The notes below the pieces were generated by a model that ran no database searches, was not told where the DNA came from, and saw only the letters and a list, made by a program, of their open reading frames with translations. From positions 30,495 through 94,494 of the forward strand of contig CAVZGV010000005.1 in assembly GCA_963774955.1 (NCBI GenBank): a stretch of 64,000 nt of DNA, given 5' to 3'. Positions 3,138 to 10,687 of this stretch are shown here, in pieces. The DNA comes from Candidatus Falkowbacteria bacterium. GTDB lineage: Bacteria; Patescibacteriota; Patescibacteriia; CAIXNZ01. Made by a program: the position numbers and the translations under genes. The stretch's first letter is position 1; each line of letters opens with the position of its first letter.

Positions 3138-4796
<1,659 letters not shown>

Positions 4797-5530: not shown

Positions 5531-6676
5531 TTATTTGCCTAAAAATCTTGCTAAACGACTCAAGCCCTCGGCCAATTCTCCCGGTGATGCCGCAAAGCTG
5601 AGCCTGACCCAGCCGGGATAGCCAAAGGCCATGCCCGGGACCAAGCCGAGTTTTTCCTGTTCCAGCAGCTCTTCACAAAACTTGAGACAGTCAACATTGT
5701 CGCCTGGGATTTTGAAAAAAAGATAGAAGGCACCCTGGGGCGGCAAGATCTCCAAGCCGGTTGCTTGGACAAACGGCAGTATAATCGTATTCAGCCGCTG
5801 TTCATAGGCTGCTTTCATCGTGGCCACTTCAGCCGCTGATTTGGCCAGAGCTGCCAAAGCAGCGTACTGGGAAATCGAGCTGGCACAGCTGGAAATCTGG
5901 GACTTGAATTTGGCCATGGCTGCAATCACTTCTTTAGGCCCAAGCGCATAACCCAGCCGATAGCCGGTCATGGCAAAAGCCTTGGAAGCGCCATCCAGAA
6001 TGATGGTTTTGTCCAGCATGCCCGGAAACTGAGCCATGCTGACATGCTTATTTTCGCCGTAAACGATCGGCGAATAAATCTCATCCGAAATCACCCAGAT
6101 ATTCTGGTCAGCCAGAATTTCCGCCATCGCGGCCATAACTTCAGGCGCAATCACAATGCCGGAAGGATTACTGGGTGAATTCAGGATAATTGCCTTGATC
6201 TTGGAATTAGCCAAAACCGCTGTAAGTTTGTCTAAATCCTTATAATCAAGAAAATGCGGCTTGCCGCCGACCAGTTTAACCATTTCAGGATAACTGGTCC
6301 AGTAAGGCTTGATGATCAGAACTTCATCTCCGGGATTTACTACCGCTGCCAGGGCCAAAAAAATCCCTTCTTTACCGCCATTGGTAGTCAAAATCTGAGT
6401 TAAAGGATCATAATCCAGACCGCGGCTTTCGTTGATTGACCCGGAAATCGCCTTCAGCAAAGGCGCTATGCCTTTGACCGGAGTGTACTTGGTTTTACCG
6501 GTTTTAGCTGCTTCGGCCGTGGCCTCAATGACCGCCTTAGGCGGTGGAAAATCCGGCTCCCCTGCCGCCAGGATAATTGTGTCCGGGAATTTGGCCTTCA
6601 TGTCTTTGGCTTTTTTATCAAAAGCCATGGTCACTGATTCCTGAATTTCGCTGACGCGTTTCGCTAGTTCCATCAT
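5531..6676 (-). CDS. class I/II pyridoxal-phosphate-dependent aminotransferase (AspC/aromatic aminotransferase-like)
   Basis: 381 aa with an SKAFAMTGYRLGY PLP-lysine region and NPSNPSG-like motifs. Overlaps tyrA by 4 nt, suggesting an operon. Confidence 0.85.
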   Translation of the reverse strand: MMELAKRVSEIQESVTMAFDKKAKDMKAKFPDTIILAAGEPDFPPPKAVIEATAEAAKTGKTKYTPVKGIAPLLKAISGSINESRGLDYDPLTQILTTNGGKEGIFLALAAVVNPGDEVLIIKPYWTSYPEMVKLVGGKPHFLDYKDLDKLTAVLANSKIKAIILNSPSNPSGIVIAPEVMAAMAEILADQNIWVISDEIYSPIVYGENKHVSMAQFPGMLDKTIILDGASKAFAMTGYRLGYALGPKEVIAAMAKFKSQISSCASSISQYAALAALAKSAAEVATMKAAYEQRLNTIILPFVQATGLEILPPQGAFYLFFKIPGDNVDCLKFCEELLEQEKLGLVPGMAFGYPGWVRLSFAASPGELAEGLSRLARFLGK

Positions 6677-7410
6677 ACCCCTCCTTGATTTACTTTTTTA
6701 TCGACTTTATCCAAACTTTCAATGAACCTTTGCCGCGTTTCCCTGGCATACGGATTGAAATTCTGCATGTCAAGAAAAAGTTGCCAAGAATCATTGGTCA
6801 CGGTTTCCATTACTCTTAACAAACGTTCAAAACCTAACGTGGTAATTTGTTGATCTTTAAAACCTACTTCCTCGAGTCCCCGACCGATAAAATGCACCAG
6901 GGATAAACTTTTAGCTGCCTGCTGGTCATGATCTTCGGGCGTGGTTTCAATTATCTTAACTTCCAGTTTATTTAAAATCTCTTTAACTTCAGCTAATCTG
7001 ACGGGACTAATTCTTAATGGACATAAAACCCACTGCAAATCCTTGGTTCCGTTTTTGGCGCTGTCCGGACCGAACATGGGATGAGTAGCCATAATTTCAT
7101 TGTCAGCGGAAATATTTTCCCGTAACCATTGACTGGGAAAAAATTTAACTGAACAGACATCCATGACCAAAGAGCCTTTTTTCAGCAATGGTGCGATTTC
7201 CTTTATCTTTTCATCGGTTGCAGATATTGCCACTGACACAAAAACCCAGTCACACTGACAAACCTCCTCAAGTGTCGCCCATTTCAAACCTAATTCTTTA
7301 GCCTCGGCTGATTTATCTGAACGATTACAAACCAGAACCTCGGCGTAAGGCTTAAGTATCTTGGCTAAAAGTTGTCCGAACCGGCTAAAGCCGATAATTC
7401 CGATGGTCAT
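6673..7410 (-). CDS. tyrA: prephenate/arogenate dehydrogenase
   Basis: N-terminal Rossmann motif IGIIGFSRFGQ and the overall TyrA-like layout. Confidence 0.8.
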   Translation of the reverse strand: MTIGIIGFSRFGQLLAKILKPYAEVLVCNRSDKSAEAKELGLKWATLEEVCQCDWVFVSVAISATDEKIKEIAPLLKKGSLVMDVCSVKFFPSQWLRENISADNEIMATHPMFGPDSAKNGTKDLQWVLCPLRISPVRLAEVKEILNKLEVKIIETTPEDHDQQAAKSLSLVHFIGRGLEEVGFKDQQITTLGFERLLRVMETVTNDSWQLFLDMQNFNPYARETRQRFIESLDKVDKKVNQGGV

Positions 7411-7479
7411 AAATATTATTTAACATCCAATAATCAATAATCAACATCCAAACAAATTCTAATTTCTAATAACCAATAA

Positions 7480-7854
7480 CTAATCTTTTTTAATTTCAGA
7501 TTTTTTATTGATTATTGCGGTGAAAATTTTTAATAATTCGGTTGCCTCTCCAATTAAAAACGCTTGTTCGCTTTGTGCCTTTTGTTCTTCACCGGGATCT
7601 GACAATTTCAACCACAATCTGCTTTCTTTCACTTCTTTTCTGCAAATACGAATCCTGAAAATAAAATCCTTATCGCTTATTGCTTCGTTAGCTTCTATAT
7701 AATTTGCCGCAGTTGAGCCTGAAGATCTAATAAGCTGCTTAGAATATTCAAGATTGGCCTGGGTTTTGGGTATCAACTTAGTATAATCCCTGCACCTCCT
7801 AGCAAATTCATAAGTCCTATCCTCTAAATCAAATTGGACATATTTTTCCCCCAT
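7480..7854 (-). CDS. four-helix-bundle protein (TIGR02436 / 23S rRNA intervening-sequence protein family)
   Basis: 124 aa, ...SSGSTAANYIEANEA... signature of the family. Confidence 0.8.
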   Translation of the reverse strand: MGEKYVQFDLEDRTYEFARRCRDYTKLIPKTQANLEYSKQLIRSSGSTAANYIEANEAISDKDFIFRIRICRKEVKESRLWLKLSDPGEEQKAQSEQAFLIGEATELLKIFTAIINKKSEIKKD

Positions 7855-7912
7855 AGATTTATTTATTATTTATTGATTATTAATTATTGTTTGATTATTG
7901 GTGATTGATTAT

Positions 7913-8489
7913 TGGTTATTTAGCCTTTGTTACCGCTAAAAACGTCGTAAAATTAAACTTCAAATCCTGAATTCCTTCTTCCAAGTATTTCCATCCCATA
8001 CAACTTGGCCGCTCCTTTGGCCGCAATGGTCGCCGTATCAGGAGTTAATTTGCCTTCTGCTAAATCTTTAACTGCCTTGGCAGTATCTTCCCACTGGATA
8101 ATTTCCGCTTGGGGCCACATTCTCTTAATATACATTTTACATTGTTTTAAAGCCTGATCATGAGAAGCAATTTTTTTAATATCTTCTCTTTTAGTTCCCG
8201 GTTTAACAATCAAATTATGGCGAATATCAATTTCAAACAGATTTTCAATATTAAATAAATGTTTAGCCATGGCATAAACAGCTTCATAGACAATACCGCC
8301 ATTGGAATTTTCAATGGGAAAAACTCCCATATTGATTTCGCTCTTATCCAAAGCAGTCAGCACATTTTCCACGGAAATTAAGTACCTGAGTTCATAGTCG
8401 CTTAAAGCGTTTTTATAAACATAATATTCAGCTGCTTCCTCGGAAAAAGAGCCCTGGGCTCCGGAAACGCCGATGATGAGTTTAGGCAT
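7913..8489 (-). CDS. pheA: prephenate dehydratase (PDT domain only), with a +1 frameshift near the 3' end
   Basis: N-terminal GxxGSFSEEAA PDT signature. The track ORF ends at 7953 (..KLYGMEILGRRNSGFEV). Removing one G near 7991 restores the conserved ..ILEEGIQDLKFNFTTFLAV.. ending and a stop near 7913. Confidence 0.75.
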
Positions 8490-8877
8490 AGATTTTGGAT
8501 TTTAGATTTTAGGTTTTGGATTATAGTTAAGTTAAATTTATACAATTTTAGCGTAAAAGTCAAAAACCCGTTTTGACAGTGTGAGCATAGTCGAACCATG
8601 TCAGGAGATGCGTCACCCTTCGACTAGCTCAGGGTGAAGGAAGAAATTAGGCCGCAGACGTCGGACTCTACGAAGTAGCGAATGAAACCGATATACGAAA
8701 ACGCATAATGACATTATTATATTCGTAAAAATTCGAATTTCGTAGATAACTTACAGCCTTTACAGCACTTCTACCCATAAAATACTAGCTAATAGTTAGC
8801 CACTCTCAGTTATTGACATTTTTATAAAAACATGCTATACTATTATATTAAGATTTGTAATAGCTTTAGCGCTATTT

Positions 8878-8930
8878 CCTCATCCCAGGACGGGATAATT
8901 TCAAGTAAGTTATTTTGTCCTGAGATGAGG
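8878..8930 (+). promoter_or_regulatory. conserved hairpin element H1 (14-bp stem, 25-nt loop) upstream of ORF 8969
   Basis: CCTCATCCCAGGAC-GGGATAATTTCAAGTAAGTTATTTT-GTCCTGAGATGAGG. A near-identical copy (H2) is at 9403-9455. Confidence 0.5.
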
Positions 8931-8968
8931 ATGAGTTCATTTTAAAAAACAAACCAAGGAGAAATCCA

Positions 8969-9361
8969 ATGGCTGATAAAGCGATCGATAAAGTGATCAG
9001 GGCATACCAGGAACGGAACTGGACTTATTGCGTGCGACCGCTTGGCGATAATCCGCCGACTGAACAAGCAATCATTACCCCGTACGTCTCTGATTCCGAA
9101 GAAGCCAAATTCAGAGCCTTGTACGACGGCTTTTCCGGAAAGTTCATTTTCCAGGATCTTGAACTTCTCAGTGCTCAACTGGAACATCCGGAATTGGAGG
9201 TCTATGGCAATAATCCCGGGATCAAAGACATCTACTTACTTACCGAAGACTGGGAAGGCCACCAGAAAGACAAATTGGCCCTTGCCTTCTTCGTCAAAAC
9301 GGCCCAGGATAAGAAAGCCAATAACCACTCAATCAGCGTTCTCTGGCTGATCGAAGTCTAA
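8969..9361 (+). CDS. hypothetical protein (cassette ORF A)
   Basis: 130-aa ORF with a strong SD (AAGGAGA) 7 nt upstream. Visibly GC-richer than neighbouring DNA. Confidence 0.5.
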   Translation: MADKAIDKVIRAYQERNWTYCVRPLGDNPPTEQAIITPYVSDSEEAKFRALYDGFSGKFIFQDLELLSAQLEHPELEVYGNNPGIKDIYLLTEDWEGHQKDKLALAFFVKTAQDKKANNHSISVLWLIEV

Positions 9362-9371
9362 TTACAATTTA

Positions 9372-9401
9372 CCCGCCCAAGCTTCTCGAAAGCACGGCGG
9401 G
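9372..9401 (+). terminator. terminator-like hairpin T1 (CCCGCC...GGCGGG), paralogous to T2
   Basis: CCCGCC-caagcttctcgaaagcac-GGCGGG with a weak T tract, about 80% similar to the terminator at 9948-9987. Confidence 0.35.
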
Positions 9402-9402
9402 T

Positions 9403-9455
9403 CTTCATCCCAGGACGGGATAATTTCAAGTAAGTTATTTTGTCCTGGGACGAGG
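9403..9455 (+). promoter_or_regulatory. conserved hairpin element H2 upstream of ORF 9557
   Basis: CTTCATCCCAGGAC-GGGATAATTTCAAGTAAGTTATTTT-GTCCTGGGACGAGG; the loop is identical to H1. Confidence 0.5.
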
Positions 9456-9556
9456 ACAATGTCCCTTAGACTTTACAGGCTTAGCTGGTCTGCCCAGCTA
9501 TTAAAACGGCTCTCTTAGGAGAGTTTACTACCCTATTTCATAGGAAAGGAAAAAAA

Positions 9557-9937
9557 ATGAAAAATTTCGGAAAGAACCTTCTCAAGGCTATCGGCATTTT
9601 CTTCACCGTCACTTTCTGTCTCTTCTTCGCTGGAGTAGCGGCACTTTCTGACATGGCCGTCCGGCTGGACCCAGCCTACAATGAAATGGAGCTTCTCCCA
9701 GGAGACGGGCTGGCAATCATTACCTTAGCTAGCCTTCAAGACTCTGATGGCGACGGCAGAAACGATCTGTGGGACTGCGCCCCCCAAGACCCGAATGTTT
9801 GGGAGGTCAAAACCTTGATCGAAAAGAAAAACGATTCCACACAGACACTGCATATATTATGGTCGTTTGATGGAGAAGCCTATGATGCGTATTTAACTCC
9901 ACCCACGGACATGTATCCGACCGAGGGGAAAAAATAA
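9557..9937 (+). CDS. hypothetical secreted/membrane-anchored protein (cassette ORF B)
   Basis: 126 aa with an N-terminal hydrophobic signal/anchor, preceded by a GGAAAGGAAA RBS. Confidence 0.5.
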   Translation: MKNFGKNLLKAIGIFFTVTFCLFFAGVAALSDMAVRLDPAYNEMELLPGDGLAIITLASLQDSDGDGRNDLWDCAPQDPNVWEVKTLIEKKNDSTQTLHILWSFDGEAYDAYLTPPTDMYPTEGKK

Positions 9938-9947
9938 TTTCCTCAAA

Positions 9948-9987
9948 CCCCGCCAAAAGCTTCTTGAAGGCTCGGCGGGTTTTTTTA
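9948..9987 (+). terminator. rho-independent terminator T2
   Basis: CCCCGCC-aaaagcttcttgaaggctc-GGCGGG followed by T8. Confidence 0.7.
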
Positions 9988-10011
9988 TTTAATGCGAATT
10001 GGTCAGACTTA

Positions 10012-10047
10012 TTTTACGGATGGACACACTTCAGTGTGTTATGGCTC
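10012..10047. repeat. left 36-bp direct repeat with palindromic core ACACACTTCAGTGTGT
   Basis: ttttacggatggacacacttcagtgtgttatggctc. It overlaps the transposase stop. The second copy is at 10598-10633, with 2 mismatches. Confidence 0.7.
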
Positions 10048-10589
10048 CCCTCATCACTTGGCGGTGTAAAATCTATCACCGGATACAAGTCAAATCTTTC
10101 ATATACTGTTTCCTCCCCATATTTTTCAATATGTTCATTAAAATCAGACCATTTGTAGTCTTTCATTTTAGAAACATAACCATGTTTAACCGGATTATGA
10201 TGATTGTAATTTACATGGGTCAAATAATTTCTTTCACTATCTAAAATGGTATCCCAATATTGCTCCCAAACTTTCCGTCCTTGGCAATTATCATATTTAT
10301 TTATTTTCCTTGAACTACTGCCATTAACTTGTTTTATAAATAAAGGCAATGCTTTGGCATTCTCAATATCTAAAACTAGCTGATAATGATTATCCAAAAT
10401 TACCCAAGAATCGCAAGTATAACCAAATTTATTTATAGCATTCATTAAACAATCATATAGTAACTGCTTTTTAAAATCATTATTGAAAAAATGAAGCCAG
10501 TCGTATGTCCTGACGGCGATAAAATACTTACTATTATCAAGCAAAACATGAGGGGGTCTATGTATATTTCTATGTTTAGGATATTCCAT
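10014..10589 (-). mobile_element. REP-associated tyrosine transposase (RAYT) / IS200-like Y1 HuH transposase, HuH degenerated to HYQ
   Basis: ...VWEQYWDTILDSERNYLTHVNYNHHNPVKHGYVSKMKDYKWSDF matches the RAYT/TnpA_REP C-terminal signature. The HuH position reads NHYQLVL. The track ORF uses a GTG start at 10613; the first ATG is at 10589. Confidence 0.75.
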
Positions 10590-10597
10590 AAAAAATA

Positions 10598-10633
10598 TTT
10601 TACGGACGGACACACTTCAGTGTGTTACGGCTC
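10598..10633. repeat. right 36-bp direct repeat (REP-like hairpin)
   Basis: tttacggacggacacacttcagtgtgttacggctc, same orientation as the left copy, just upstream of the transposase start. Confidence 0.7.
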
Positions 10634-10687
10634 TTCCGTATCTCCAAACAGTCCCCTAACAGACTAAAGTCTGTCCTTCCGGGTTAT

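Follow-up and report, generated by a model that had tools for sequence, protein, structure and literature searches.

A conserved hairpin repeated ahead of unrelated small genes in Parcubacteria, possibly an RNA punctuation element of a cassette array

The window, that is, the whole 64-kb stretch of DNA that was analyzed, contains a short array in which two small open reading frames (ORFs) are each preceded by a copy of one conserved hairpin, H, and followed by a GC-rich hairpin. The order is promoter, small hairpin, H1, leader, ORF1, T1, H2, leader, ORF2, and T2 with a U-run, as follows.

8813 to 8841, + strand: sigma-70-type array promoter, TTGACA, 17-nt spacer, TG-extended TATACT; 11/12 consensus positions, extended -10
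8859 to 8876, + strand: small AU-rich hairpin of the AUAGCU...AGCUAU type, 0 nt before H1 in the fold of 8848-8975
8877 to 8931, + strand: H1, with 8-bp outer stem, C.A mismatch, 16-bp inner stem with tandem G.U pairs, and loop CAAGU; 79 bits against covariance model R1
8932 to 8968, + strand: leader 1, with Shine-Dalgarno AAGGAGA at 8956-8962 (read, as is leader 2, from the sequence)
8969 to 9361, + strand: ORF1, 130-aa cassette gene, no family match, two distant homologues
9372 to 9401, + strand: T1, T_A-type GC-rich hairpin lacking a U-run; the 3' foot abuts H2
9402 to 9456, + strand: H2, second conserved hairpin copy; 74 bits against covariance model R1
9457 to 9556, + strand: leader 2, with further small hairpins and the ribosome-binding site GGAAAGGA
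9557 to 9937, + strand: ORF2, 126-aa cassette gene; hydrophobic segment at the N terminus, DSDGDGRND motif
9948 to 9990, + strand: T2, T_A-type hairpin (9948-9979) plus U-run (9980-9990), the intrinsic terminator closing the array

Searches of Pfam, NCBIfam, PADLOC, PHROG, and PDB returned no family match for ORF1. Two homologues of the same length were found, P0003 (E = 1e-18, 36% identity) and P0004, and an AF2 model built from the 3-sequence alignment was unusable (pLDDT 40). For ORF2, a search across 5.8 billion proteins returned ORF2 itself alone, and there was no match in Pfam, NCBIfam, PADLOC, PHROG, or PDB. The two ORFs are unrelated, as the preliminary description of the locus had held: they cannot be aligned with each other (BLASTP E = 0.23), and their DNA identity is at background. 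The ~25 cassette ORFs found across all arrays fall into roughly 20 unrelated ORFan families. That description had named a simple tandem duplication, with a motif unique to this locus and alignable ORFs, as the outcome that would overturn it; this was ruled out by the unalignable ORFs and by the occurrence of the same H beside ~20 ORF families in other genomes.

H1 and H2 are 55-nt direct repeats with an identity of 52/55, so the two related hairpins noticed earlier are indeed present. Each folds into a stem of ~25 bp closed by the 5-nt loop CAAGU, more stably on the ORF strand, with folding energies of -33.3 and -38.4 kcal/mol, respectively (z about -6.7 compared to shuffles). The two had been credited with an identical 25-nt loop and with compensatory changes in their stems, and neither point held. 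Of the 25 nt in question, 20 are paired, G.U pairs included, and the true loop is CAAGU; the three substitutions between H1 and H2 (C-G to U.G, C.A to C-G, and A-U to A.C) are all one-sided, and none is compensatory. The 25-mer itself, GGGATAATTTCAAGTAAGTTATTTT, occurs exactly twice in the 64 kb, where 0 occurrences are expected, and an exhaustive covariance-model scan of the window gave no third copy of H. Further copies in related genomes place the motif beyond this locus. One frame is open across H, but a translated peptide was dismissed because the upstream frames are not conserved.

Covariation is seen only in the comparison with other genomes. Seventeen distinct H copies align gap-free with a mean column identity of 88%, and RNAalifold independently predicts the same fold, a single unbranched hairpin. 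The inner 16-bp helix is essentially 100% paired in the alignment; overall, 89% of cells are paired, compared to 42 to 51% when the partner is slid by 1 to 3 columns, and the observed covariation score was reached in 0/500 shuffles. Pairs 26-34 (C-G in 11, U-A in 5) and 23-37 show double changes. No variation is seen at the tandem G.U pairs 18-42 and 19-41, and five further pairs alternate G.U with A-U or G-C. In 20/21 copies, the + strand gives a more stable fold than the - strand, the bottom strand having A.C mismatches at 3 to 5 inner pairs, and the orientation of H is always the same as that of the ORFs. The outer stem carries conserved mismatches, C.A at 11-49 and A.C at 8-52, rather than bulged bases; because these two become G.U on the opposite strand, the strand signal stands at 8 pairs to 2 and is not unanimous. 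H has a 14-nt 5' arm (TCATCCCAGGACGG) that is invariant, as well as a conserved loop, whereas the adjacent hairpin drifts freely. The H family is shallow, and so part of this invariance may reflect recency. In one copy (L127, 1567-1665; related loci are given here by L numbers), a 40-nt extra hairpin is inserted in the 3' arm, with both helices of H retained.

Altogether, 21 distinct copies of H were recovered from about a dozen contigs of related Parcubacteria, and a GTDB scan gave one H locus per genome. As judged by these searches, H appears to be confined to a small group of uncultured Parcubacteria. Most H loci share one slot, between the genes for prephenate dehydratase and the Wzy_C ligase, and in one lineage H lies between rpoC and hup. 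Arrays in the slot hold one to three modules each, and their content differs between genomes in the same chromosomal position; the expectation that other genomes would carry different ORFs between the same H elements was therefore borne out at the related loci. Copies of H within one array are more alike than copies between genomes. Between genomes, H is conserved to 85 to 92%, compared to 85 to 93% for the neighboring pheA coding DNA, and the flanking intergenic DNA cannot be aligned.

H matches no described RNA or repeat family. Rfam 15 scans, using both gathering and E-value thresholds, gave no match at H in the window or at 12 related loci, and the best subthreshold match (26.7 bits; threshold, 84) is to a plant miRNA precursor and reflects a generic long hairpin. 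In the viral contigs of IMG/VR, the 25-mer is absent, a 14-mer gave chance matches only, and matches to a two-arm pattern failed the covariance model; blastn against INPHARED phages and PLSDB plasmids gave no matches. A phage or plasmid origin was rejected on these searches. The start codon lies 37 nt after H1 and 100 nt after H2, and across loci the distance from H ranges from 37 to >350 nt to the start codon and from 25 to >350 nt to the ribosome-binding site. This variable spacing, together with the plain long hairpin, the lack of an Rfam match, and the unrelated downstream genes, makes a riboswitch platform unlikely, as had been argued from the window.

The array promoter has counterparts elsewhere, with a TTGAC-N17-TGCTATAMT box also upstream of the arrays in L001, L125, L127, L131, L132, L137, and L139; the segment from 8777 to 8931 is 79% identical in alignment to 5590-5745 of L001. 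No promoters were seen inside the arrays. Seventeen of the 17 copies of H that do not follow a promoter are preceded by a GC hairpin, T' (-9 to -23 kcal/mol), that ends 0 to 2 nt before H. The sequence of T' varies between arrays, and none of the 17 leads into a U-run; what comes next is YUCAUCCC, from the 5' arm of H. Only the last gene of an array has a U-run after it. The AU-rich hairpin at 8859-8876 is the promoter-proximal counterpart of T', and L001, L127, and L131 have a comparable weak hairpin ahead of their first H. The arrays of L125 and L137 lack an H before the promoter-proximal gene, and H is therefore dispensable for expression.

T1 and T2 had been described as related terminators. 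They are related, and their T_A hairpin type occurs nowhere else in the window, but the terminator role applies to T2 only. T1 has no U-run and lies 0 to 1 nt from H2 and is therefore not an intrinsic terminator. T2 has the stem (9948-9979) followed by TTTTTTT (9980-9986) of an intrinsic (Rho-independent) terminator; it was not listed by the consensus terminator scan because its loop exceeds 8 nt. The T2 hairpin with TTTTTTTATTT also closes the arrays in L001 and L137. The parts of a module occur in different combinations at different loci. ORF1 and its homologue in L001 share only 36% identity, yet T1 is identical at 31/31 positions to the hairpin that follows that homologue, where a U-run rather than H comes next. 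The ~25 nt before the ORF1 ATG resemble the region upstream of the same homologue, and DNA comparison showed no similarity between leader 1 and leader 2. L001 and L128 are 97% identical over H and an 85-nt leader but differ in the upstream T' and the downstream ORF. The T_A unit overlaps the last codons of unrelated ORFs by ~20 nt.

The structure, conservation, and covariation of H, its strand bias, its fixed position relative to the promoter, T', and the ORFs, and the variability of the cargo are the observations to be accommodated. We tentatively propose, at somewhat less than an even chance, that H is a new RNA element that punctuates a polycistronic cassette array on the sense strand, and probably a site of processing or stability control by a double-strand-specific RNase, with conserved ends that allow cassette exchange. 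H would be the conserved core of a modular element in a small cassette-array mRNA. The one strong promoter (8813-8841) would give a single transcript across both modules, in which each sense-strand H carries a second hairpin stacked 5' of it, T' between cistrons and the weaker AU hairpin after the promoter. An RNase III-type double-strand-specific endoribonuclease would cut H or, failing that, H would be bound as a defined duplex. Cleavage would separate the cistrons, leaving the U-less GC hairpin T' on the upstream message as a barrier to 3' exonucleases and giving every downstream gene the same defined 5' end regardless of the sequence upstream. The common left end (H plus leader) and the common right end (last codons plus T) could then serve as homology for the gain, loss, and swapping of unrelated ORFs, and such end-mediated exchange may have produced the hypervariable slot between the prephenate dehydratase and Wzy_C genes in this Parcubacteria lineage. 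What we infer from the arrangement is that the genes are co-transcribed, that H is cleaved, that T' is protective, and that exchange proceeds by homologous recombination. A duplex of at least 25 bp is of sufficient length for RNase III, and the duplex of H (16 plus 8 to 9 sense-strand bp interrupted by one or two mismatches, conserved in 21 copies) has the ~20 bp or more of near-continuous pairing that an RNase III processing site calls for. However, RNase III has little primary-sequence requirement, and yet the arm and loop of H are invariant, which points to a sequence-specific partner, protein or nucleic acid, that the cleavage model does not name.

The same modularity could be read at the level of DNA, with T'|H or H alone as an integron-like recombination site in the role of attC or attI, the recombinase being encoded elsewhere in the genome and recognizing the site as duplex or single-stranded DNA, and modules being inserted and excised precisely. 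We regard this as unlikely but worth keeping in view. As in integron arrays, including sedentary integrons and CALINs, small co-oriented promoterless ORFs that vary in number and identity between related genomes lie in one slot behind one promoter, a Pc equivalent; an imperfect palindrome is repeated between them and is homogeneous within each array, as attC is in sedentary integrons, and the 3' ends of some ORFs run into the repeat unit. Compared with L001, module 2 of the window lies exactly between GGCGGGT and TTTTTTATTT, and the breakpoints lie at T'|H and immediately ahead of the ATG. The strong primary-sequence conservation of H, and not of T', would suit a sequence-specific protein, every mismatch is a transition-type one (G.T or A.C), the covarying pair 26-34 is C.A in one copy (L128_a), as would be expected of a hybrid site, and the GC content of the cargo is above that of the flanks in L001, L125, and L132. 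However, the arrays have no conserved recombinase gene beside them: within 5 to 10 kb, no integrase or recombinase was found in the window, L001, L126, L137, or L149 (by precomputed Pfam annotation over 5 to 10 kb for L001 and L149), apart from a nonconserved gene for a RAYT-type Y1 transposase in the window. The genes within ~9 kb in the window are GroEL fragments, an aminotransferase, PDH, IVP, PDT, RAYT, Wzy_C, YidC, and NusA. R''/R' boxes (RYYYAAC/GTTRRRY) at a spacing of 40 to 135 nt were found in 0/20 composites of T' and H on either strand. In attC, it is the bottom strand that is folded and recombined, with extrahelical bases (PMC2727003, PMC5027507), whereas the G.U pattern and the folding energies of H favor the top (sense) strand. 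H also differs in that it lies upstream of its ORF with a long leader and is itself conserved across genomes next to a variable hairpin, and a 40-nt insertion in one of its arms is tolerated. An integron attC array was rejected for the lack of intI and R boxes. The cassette-like modularity suspected in the preliminary description stands, and the attC family named there is not supported, though an attC-like DNA role keeps some probability. A rather unlikely variant is that T'|H is the attachment site of a previously unknown, integron-independent cassette system of these Candidate Phyla Radiation (CPR) bacteria, with H doubling as mRNA punctuation. Its partner recombinase or nuclease, encoded elsewhere, would recognize the invariant sequence of H and add or remove ORF modules at a fixed expression site with one promoter and one terminator. 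Since T1/T2 and the copies of H are direct repeats, homologous recombination explains module gain and loss equally well, and since neither T' nor the leader stays linked to an ORF between L001 and L128, the data fit no one cassette boundary. Between a processing site and a DNA recombination site, the G.U pairing, the strand asymmetry, and the co-orientation with the ORFs speak for the former. Least probable of all, and very unlikely, is that H is a selfish REP/MITE-like palindrome or an IS200/IS605-type end mobilized by the neighboring RAYT, with no role in expression. Directly oriented hairpins in top-strand DNA are the substrates of HUH/Y1 enzymes, and the window does have short intergenic direct hairpins beside such a gene (10014-10613), which lies 27 nt past T2 (NCBIfam NF047646, 89 bits against a cutoff of 80). 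However, this gene lies outside the H/T modules, is flanked by its own unrelated 38-nt repeats (10010-10047 and 10596-10633), and is missing from all other H loci, syntenic ones included, so that H was rejected as its REP. The copies of H bracket ORFans, whereas the subterminal hairpins of an IS200/IS605-type element enclose a tnpA (Y1) gene in one mobile unit. A REP-type boundary, also raised at the outset, is further contradicted by the lack of dispersal of H (each genome has one locus, the 64 kb contain 2 copies, and H always precedes an ORF in a single orientation) and by its conservation across genomes at the level of coding DNA.

Two other readings also have H act in the RNA, and both appear improbable. 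One is that H, the adjacent small hairpin, and a downstream boxA-like sequence load a factor onto RNA polymerase for read-through, like nut/rrn or put. Antiterminator sites follow promoters in lambda, and HK022 put consists of two abutting hairpins. H similarly lies ~30 nt downstream of the start site, recurs in the operon after each hairpin, and with its adjoining hairpin recalls put, and its invariant 5' arm and loop would suit a sequence-specific partner. Antiterminator sites recur in the rrn leader and spacer (PMC2724277), and put and EAR act as RNA elements (PMC11658703). Eight homologous leaders have a small hairpin 14 to 17 nt after H with UGCUCUUUA or a variant matching at 7 to 8 of 9 positions (exact in L131); UGCUCUUUA is the rrn boxA sequence, and boxA takes the forms UGCUCUUUA or CGCUCUUA (PMC2724277). 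A boxA score of at least 7/9 is reached in 9/21 leaders, compared to 10% of background windows. However, the boxA-like motif is limited to one homologous leader subfamily, is half buried in the hairpin, and may be the U-rich side of a weak terminator, and it is missing or weak in the window, where both leaders reach only a 6/9 match. H is much longer than boxB and has no Rfam family match, and the first genes in L125 and L137 do without it. The internal T' hairpins have no U-run, so there are no terminators to overcome and nothing to antiterminate. The other reading makes H an uncleaved stabilizer or insulator of the 5' untranslated region of each cistron or an operator for an RNA-binding regulator. 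It draws on the same structural and positional evidence as processing does; H and leader are retained as a unit before different ORFs, and the outer stem pairs an anti-SD-like CCUC with GAGG. However, 5' stabilizers act at the extreme 5' end, and most copies of H are internal to the transcript. The wide range of distances to the ribosome-binding site also counts against this reading, and it leaves the obligatory U-less GC hairpin directly upstream unexplained.

For the proposed RNA punctuation, one likeness is the early mRNA of phage T7, which has conserved intercistronic RNase III hairpins. There, too, several conserved hairpins of ~50 to 60 nt with an internal mismatch lie between cistrons, and cleavage, putative in the case of H, leaves a protective 3' hairpin on the upstream message. 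In contrast to T7, H is found on a CPR chromosome with no phage context and has an extra obligatory GC hairpin on its 5' side. In Neisseria, RNase III binds or cleaves the RNA hairpins of Correia elements carried in transcripts, altering expression (PMC2649163). They resemble H as inverted repeats in transcripts with neighboring genes, co-transcription being inferred for H. However, Correia elements are dispersed, mobile, and present in many copies per genome with target duplications, whereas H forms one array per genome, always co-oriented with the ORFs. The rAID-1 orphan-immunity arrays of Bacteroidales, whose repetitive intergenic sequences have been called reminiscent of integrons (10.1101/471110), are also arrays of small diverse genes with skewed GC content. 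They have a conserved XerD-family recombinase and recognizable immunity cargo, whereas the H arrays have no recombinase and all-ORFan cargo, belong to another phylum, and share no sequence similarity with them.

CPR bacteria such as Parcubacteria have very small genomes with few recognizable mobile elements and a large share of ORFans, and little is understood of the way in which accessory genes are gained and expressed in them. The locus described here is a defined chromosomal expression slot, with one promoter, one terminator, and two-hairpin punctuation, in which unrelated small genes are exchanged among close relatives. Should H act in RNA processing or insulation, a phylum with almost no characterized RNA biology would gain a new RNA motif, one that is a natural counterpart of the synthetic insulator hairpins used for context-independent cistrons. 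If it is instead a recombination site, it would define a new cassette system outside the integron paradigm. In either case, covariance model R1 offers a handle for finding such arrays and their cargo in metagenomes.

The unit had also been called compositionally foreign to its surroundings, which is weakly true in the window and overstated. The GC content of the array (0.467) is at the 91st percentile of 1.1-kb windows (mean, 0.401; maximum, 0.535), but that of the adjacent housekeeping aminotransferase gene is higher (0.498). The contrast is sharper in L001, L125, and L132, and L137 does not show it. Sequence searches with 10 further cassette proteins were empty in Pfam, NCBIfam, PADLOC, PHROGs, and PDB, with the exception of L132_254, which has a subthreshold HNH-like zinc ribbon. 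Many of the cassette products are membrane or secreted proteins.

The window holds two modules with a conserved hairpin, as the preliminary description had stated. The hairpins, H1 and H2, are direct repeats with 52/55 identity and a spacing of 525 nt. The array and the adjoining REP-associated tyrosine transposase (RAYT) gene comprise the following features.

8813-8841: array promoter, near-consensus TTGACA-17-TG-TATACT
8859-8876: small AU hairpin, abutting H1 in the same way as T1 abuts H2
8877-8931, + strand: H1, 55-nt direct repeat, folds as a hairpin
8969-9361: ORF1, cassette ORF
9372-9401: T1, hairpin without a U-run, its stem directly abutting H2
9402-9456, + strand: H2, 55-nt direct repeat, folds as a hairpin
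9557-9937: ORF2, cassette ORF
9948-9979: T2, hairpin followed by TTTTTTT
10014-10613, - strand: RAYT/IS200-like Y1 transposase gene, within a unit at 10010-10676

The 25-mer first read as a loop has two exact occurrences in the 64-kb window, compared with 0 expected. It actually forms 10 further pairs (G.U, G.U, G.U, A-U, U-A, A-U, A-U, U.G, U-A, U-A) closing a 5-nt loop, CAAGU, and the + strands of H1 and H2 fold into hairpins of ~25 bp (-33.3 and -38.4 kcal/mol in 71-nt windows; z ~ -6.7). The compensatory stem changes reported earlier were not borne out, as the three differences between H1 and H2 are each one-sided within the pair. ORF1 and ORF2 are indeed unrelated (BLASTP E = 0.23; DNA identity at background). 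T1 and T2 are related hairpins of a CCCGCC/GGCGGG type (T_A) confined to these two sites within the window, but the label of terminator suits only T2, with its TTTTTTT. The array is high in GC (0.467, 91st percentile); however, this value is still inside the window range (maximum, 0.535), so that the unit is less foreign than had been proposed.

No close relatives of ORF1 and ORF2 were found among 5.8 billion proteins. An exhaustive HMMER search yielded two distant homologues of ORF1 that match it in length, one of them on JAPLYC010000059.1 (L001), from a Candidatus Parcubacteria MAG of Lac Pavin sediment, in a syntenic slot. This slot is flanked by aminotransferase, prephenate dehydrogenase, and prephenate dehydratase genes on one side and a Wzy_C-type ligase gene on the other. 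Within it are three modules, each comprising H, a further unrelated ORF (144, 108, and 98 aa, respectively), and a GC hairpin, as well as a separate operon in which the ORF1 homologue has no upstream H. The hairpin after this homologue is identical to T1 at 31/31 positions but has a U-run.

Further copies were sought with a two-arm pattern derived from the five H copies then known. The GTDB genomes gave L001 and CAYNWH010000018.1 (L125), and the JGI metagenomes gave 11 true contigs and 4 chance matches. A covariance model of H, R1, contributed two diverged copies, and even an unfiltered R1 scan of the window detected no third one. H had no match in Rfam or among viral contigs, phage genomes, and plasmids. 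The pheA-to-Wzy_C slot was the site of H on every contig with enough flank, except in one lineage (contigs L132, L149, and L150), where H lies within a GC-rich island of ~5 kb between rpoC and hup. L125 was deposited as an uncultured Gammaproteobacteria MAG, and its array is identical to those of two JGI contigs. Because L125 is syntenic with the Parcubacteria loci (PDT and Wzy_C protein identity, 59-85%), its label probably reflects mis-binning. The hairpin family has so far been found in one Parcubacteria lineage only.

The 17 distinct H copies aligned without gaps, with a mean identity of 88%. The 5' arm, TCATCCCAGGACGG, hardly varies, and the inner 16-bp helix is paired in essentially all sequences. 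Covariation analysis, suggested earlier as a check, was positive: pairs 26-34 (C-G in 11, U-A in 5) and 23-37 covary, and no shuffle matched the score. Five more pairs are G.U in some copies and Watson-Crick in others, the tandem pairs 18-42 and 19-41 are G.U in every copy, and the outer stem is marked by a C.A mismatch at 11-49 (16/17) and by A.C or A-U at 8-52. Pairing held in 89% of cells, compared with 42-51% with slid partners, and RNAalifold returned the same fold. The sense-strand fold was more stable in 20 of the 21 copies compared; the strand signal is nevertheless mixed, as the opposite strand would form G.U pairs at both mismatches of the outer stem. One diverged copy carries a 40-nt hairpin inserted in the 3' arm. 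Between genomes, H is 85-92% conserved, compared with 85-93% for the adjoining pheA coding DNA, while neighboring intergenic DNA is unalignable, indicating that H is under constraint.

Different ORFs between shared H elements, another check suggested earlier, were found in related genomes. The arrays carry ~25 cassette ORFs of roughly 20 unrelated families, with only five pairs of homologues shared between arrays. ORF1, ORF2, and 10 other cassette proteins had no match in Pfam, NCBIfam, PADLOC, PHROG, or PDB. Several of the proteins have N-terminal hydrophobic or lipoprotein-like segments. L001 and a second Parcubacteria contig (L128) have homologous ORF144/145 ends followed by GC hairpins of different types, while H and its 85-nt leader, up to the ribosome-binding site, are 97% identical and precede wholly different ORFs. 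The protein identity of ORF1 to its L001 homologue is 36%, yet the DNA identity over the final ~20 nt of the gene together with T is 89%. In comparison with L001, module 2 (H2 to T2) is placed precisely between GGCGGGT and TTTTTTATTT, consistent with either insertion there or loss via recombination between the two T copies. H copies are closer to one another within an array than to those of other genomes, pointing to local duplication or gene conversion. Two cassette-associated proteins have several CxxC pairs (254 aa, L132 reverse-complemented 6279-7043; 272 aa, L139 1832-2650). The former has sub-threshold HNH-endonuclease matches (Pfam HNH_5, E = 1e-3; phrog_2214, E = 9.5e-5), a weak hint of a putative nuclease in the larger H-bearing islands.

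All 17 non-promoter H copies are preceded by a GC-rich hairpin without a U-run that ends 0-2 nt before H. These hairpins (T') are of several unrelated types, such as CCCGCC...GGCGGG, CCCCGCCGG...CCGGCGGG, and GGGGATC...GATCCCC. At the four promoter-proximal copies, a weaker AU hairpin replaces the GC hairpin, and array ends have a hairpin plus U-run. The T_A unit begins ~20 nt 5' of its hairpin (RTCGARGNCTAA; window 9340-9371 and 9915-9947, L001 5375-5406 and 7195-7221) and overlaps the terminal codons of four unrelated ORFs, which therefore share their final two or three codons and stop region. Some leaders (L131 [444-452], L127, L132, L137, L138, and L150) have a small hairpin at +14 to +17 after H that contains UGCUCUUUA, identical to the boxA of E. 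coli rrn, or variants with 7-8/9 matches, then UUGAAA. The motif is exact in L131 and reaches only 6/9 in the window leaders; it could be a Nus-factor site or simply a weak terminator.

H is best fit by a sense-strand RNA element, given the pattern of G.U pairs, the difference in energy between the strands, the constant co-orientation with the ORFs, the tolerated inserted branch, and the association with leader and ribosome-binding site. Its constant position after the promoter or a U-less hairpin and the confinement of U-runs to array ends imply that the array would be transcribed as one polycistronic unit punctuated by T'-H. Double-strand-specific endoribonucleases typically act on duplexes of this kind, 25 bp long with a conserved internal mismatch, and the cistrons of phage T7 early mRNA are separated by such hairpin processing, each cut leaving the upstream message with a protective 3' hairpin. 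We tentatively propose, with somewhat less than even confidence, that H is an endoribonuclease processing site punctuating the cassette mRNA, similar in its mode of working to T7-type intercistronic sites. Cleavage of H would separate the cistrons, and the U-less hairpin would then serve as a 3' exonuclease barrier, which may be why a stable one is always kept directly 5' of H. RNase III also binds or cuts the Correia elements present in transcripts of Neisseria (PMC2649163). The strong conservation of the H primary sequence while T' drifts freely points to a partner with sequence specificity, which RNase III alone would not explain.

The arrays resemble integron and rAID-1 arrays: a single promoter precedes co-oriented ORFan cassettes, palindromic units recur in the intergenic spaces, and the content varies (PMC2727003, PMC5027507, 10.1101/471110). 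However, they have no integrase nearby and no R boxes, and the favored strand is the opposite one, which places them outside these families and makes it unlikely that H is a DNA-level attC-like site for a recombinase encoded elsewhere. That the arrays form a new cassette-recombination system in CPR bacteria is rather doubtful. A nut/put-like antitermination signal would agree with the boxA-like motif that one subfamily of leaders has 14-17 nt after H, but the window copies match this motif only weakly and the arrays have no internal terminators to overcome, so we regard this role as improbable, and we give a similarly low rating to an uncleaved stabilizer or operator. H shares no sequence with curated families. 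What is new here is the conserved hairpin family and the two-hairpin punctuation of a hypervariable cassette slot.

It is highly improbable that H is the REP of the neighboring RAYT, which has repeats of its own and is absent from other H loci. Two direct repeats of 38 nt bracket the RAYT gene (10010-10047 and 10596-10633) and share 95% identity and the hairpin core GGACACAC-TTCA-GTGTGTTA; a third copy, diverged and inverted, lies at 10657-10676. The syntenic loci lack this whole unit, which suggests that it was inserted recently, directly beyond the array terminator.

Other repeats and structured stretches were also observed. The rpoC-hup island and L139 have a common structured leader of ~170 nt directly after the promoter (GTTAACAGG...GGGGGTAGTAG...CCTCCAT...CTGTTAA), and L132 also has a GC-rich, ORF-poor stretch of ~2 kb with four copies of the hairpin CCTTCTAAGCCCATAAAGNAATTTGTGGTTTTAGAAGGG (L132 reverse-complemented 4450-4650 and 7050-9100; L139 200-400). 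Neither the leader nor this hairpin matched Rfam. Two window repeat families, a 77-nt TACAAAT-rich repeat (16905-16981/59518-59594, 84% identical) and a GC hairpin, CCGCC..GGCGGATCCGCC..GGCGG (18969-19006/57369-57406, 87% identical), are unrelated to H or T. A stretch of ~210 nt (8565-8776) that separates the region upstream of pheA from the array promoter lacks a counterpart in L001 and the other loci compared, and it folds strongly (-30 kcal/mol for 136 nt). Three successive ORFs (3138-3842, 3769-4257, and 4365-4784) make up the window GroEL (Cpn60) gene (- strand, 3138-4784), which is intact (548 aa) in the related locus L137; the split reflects frameshifts, a pseudogene, or assembly errors. 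A gene for a 23S-rRNA-intervening-sequence protein (PF05635; 7480-7854, - strand) lies between the prephenate dehydrogenase and dehydratase genes, likewise in L126 and L133, and this position is empty in L001 and L137. The gene is a second small presence/absence polymorphism beside the array.
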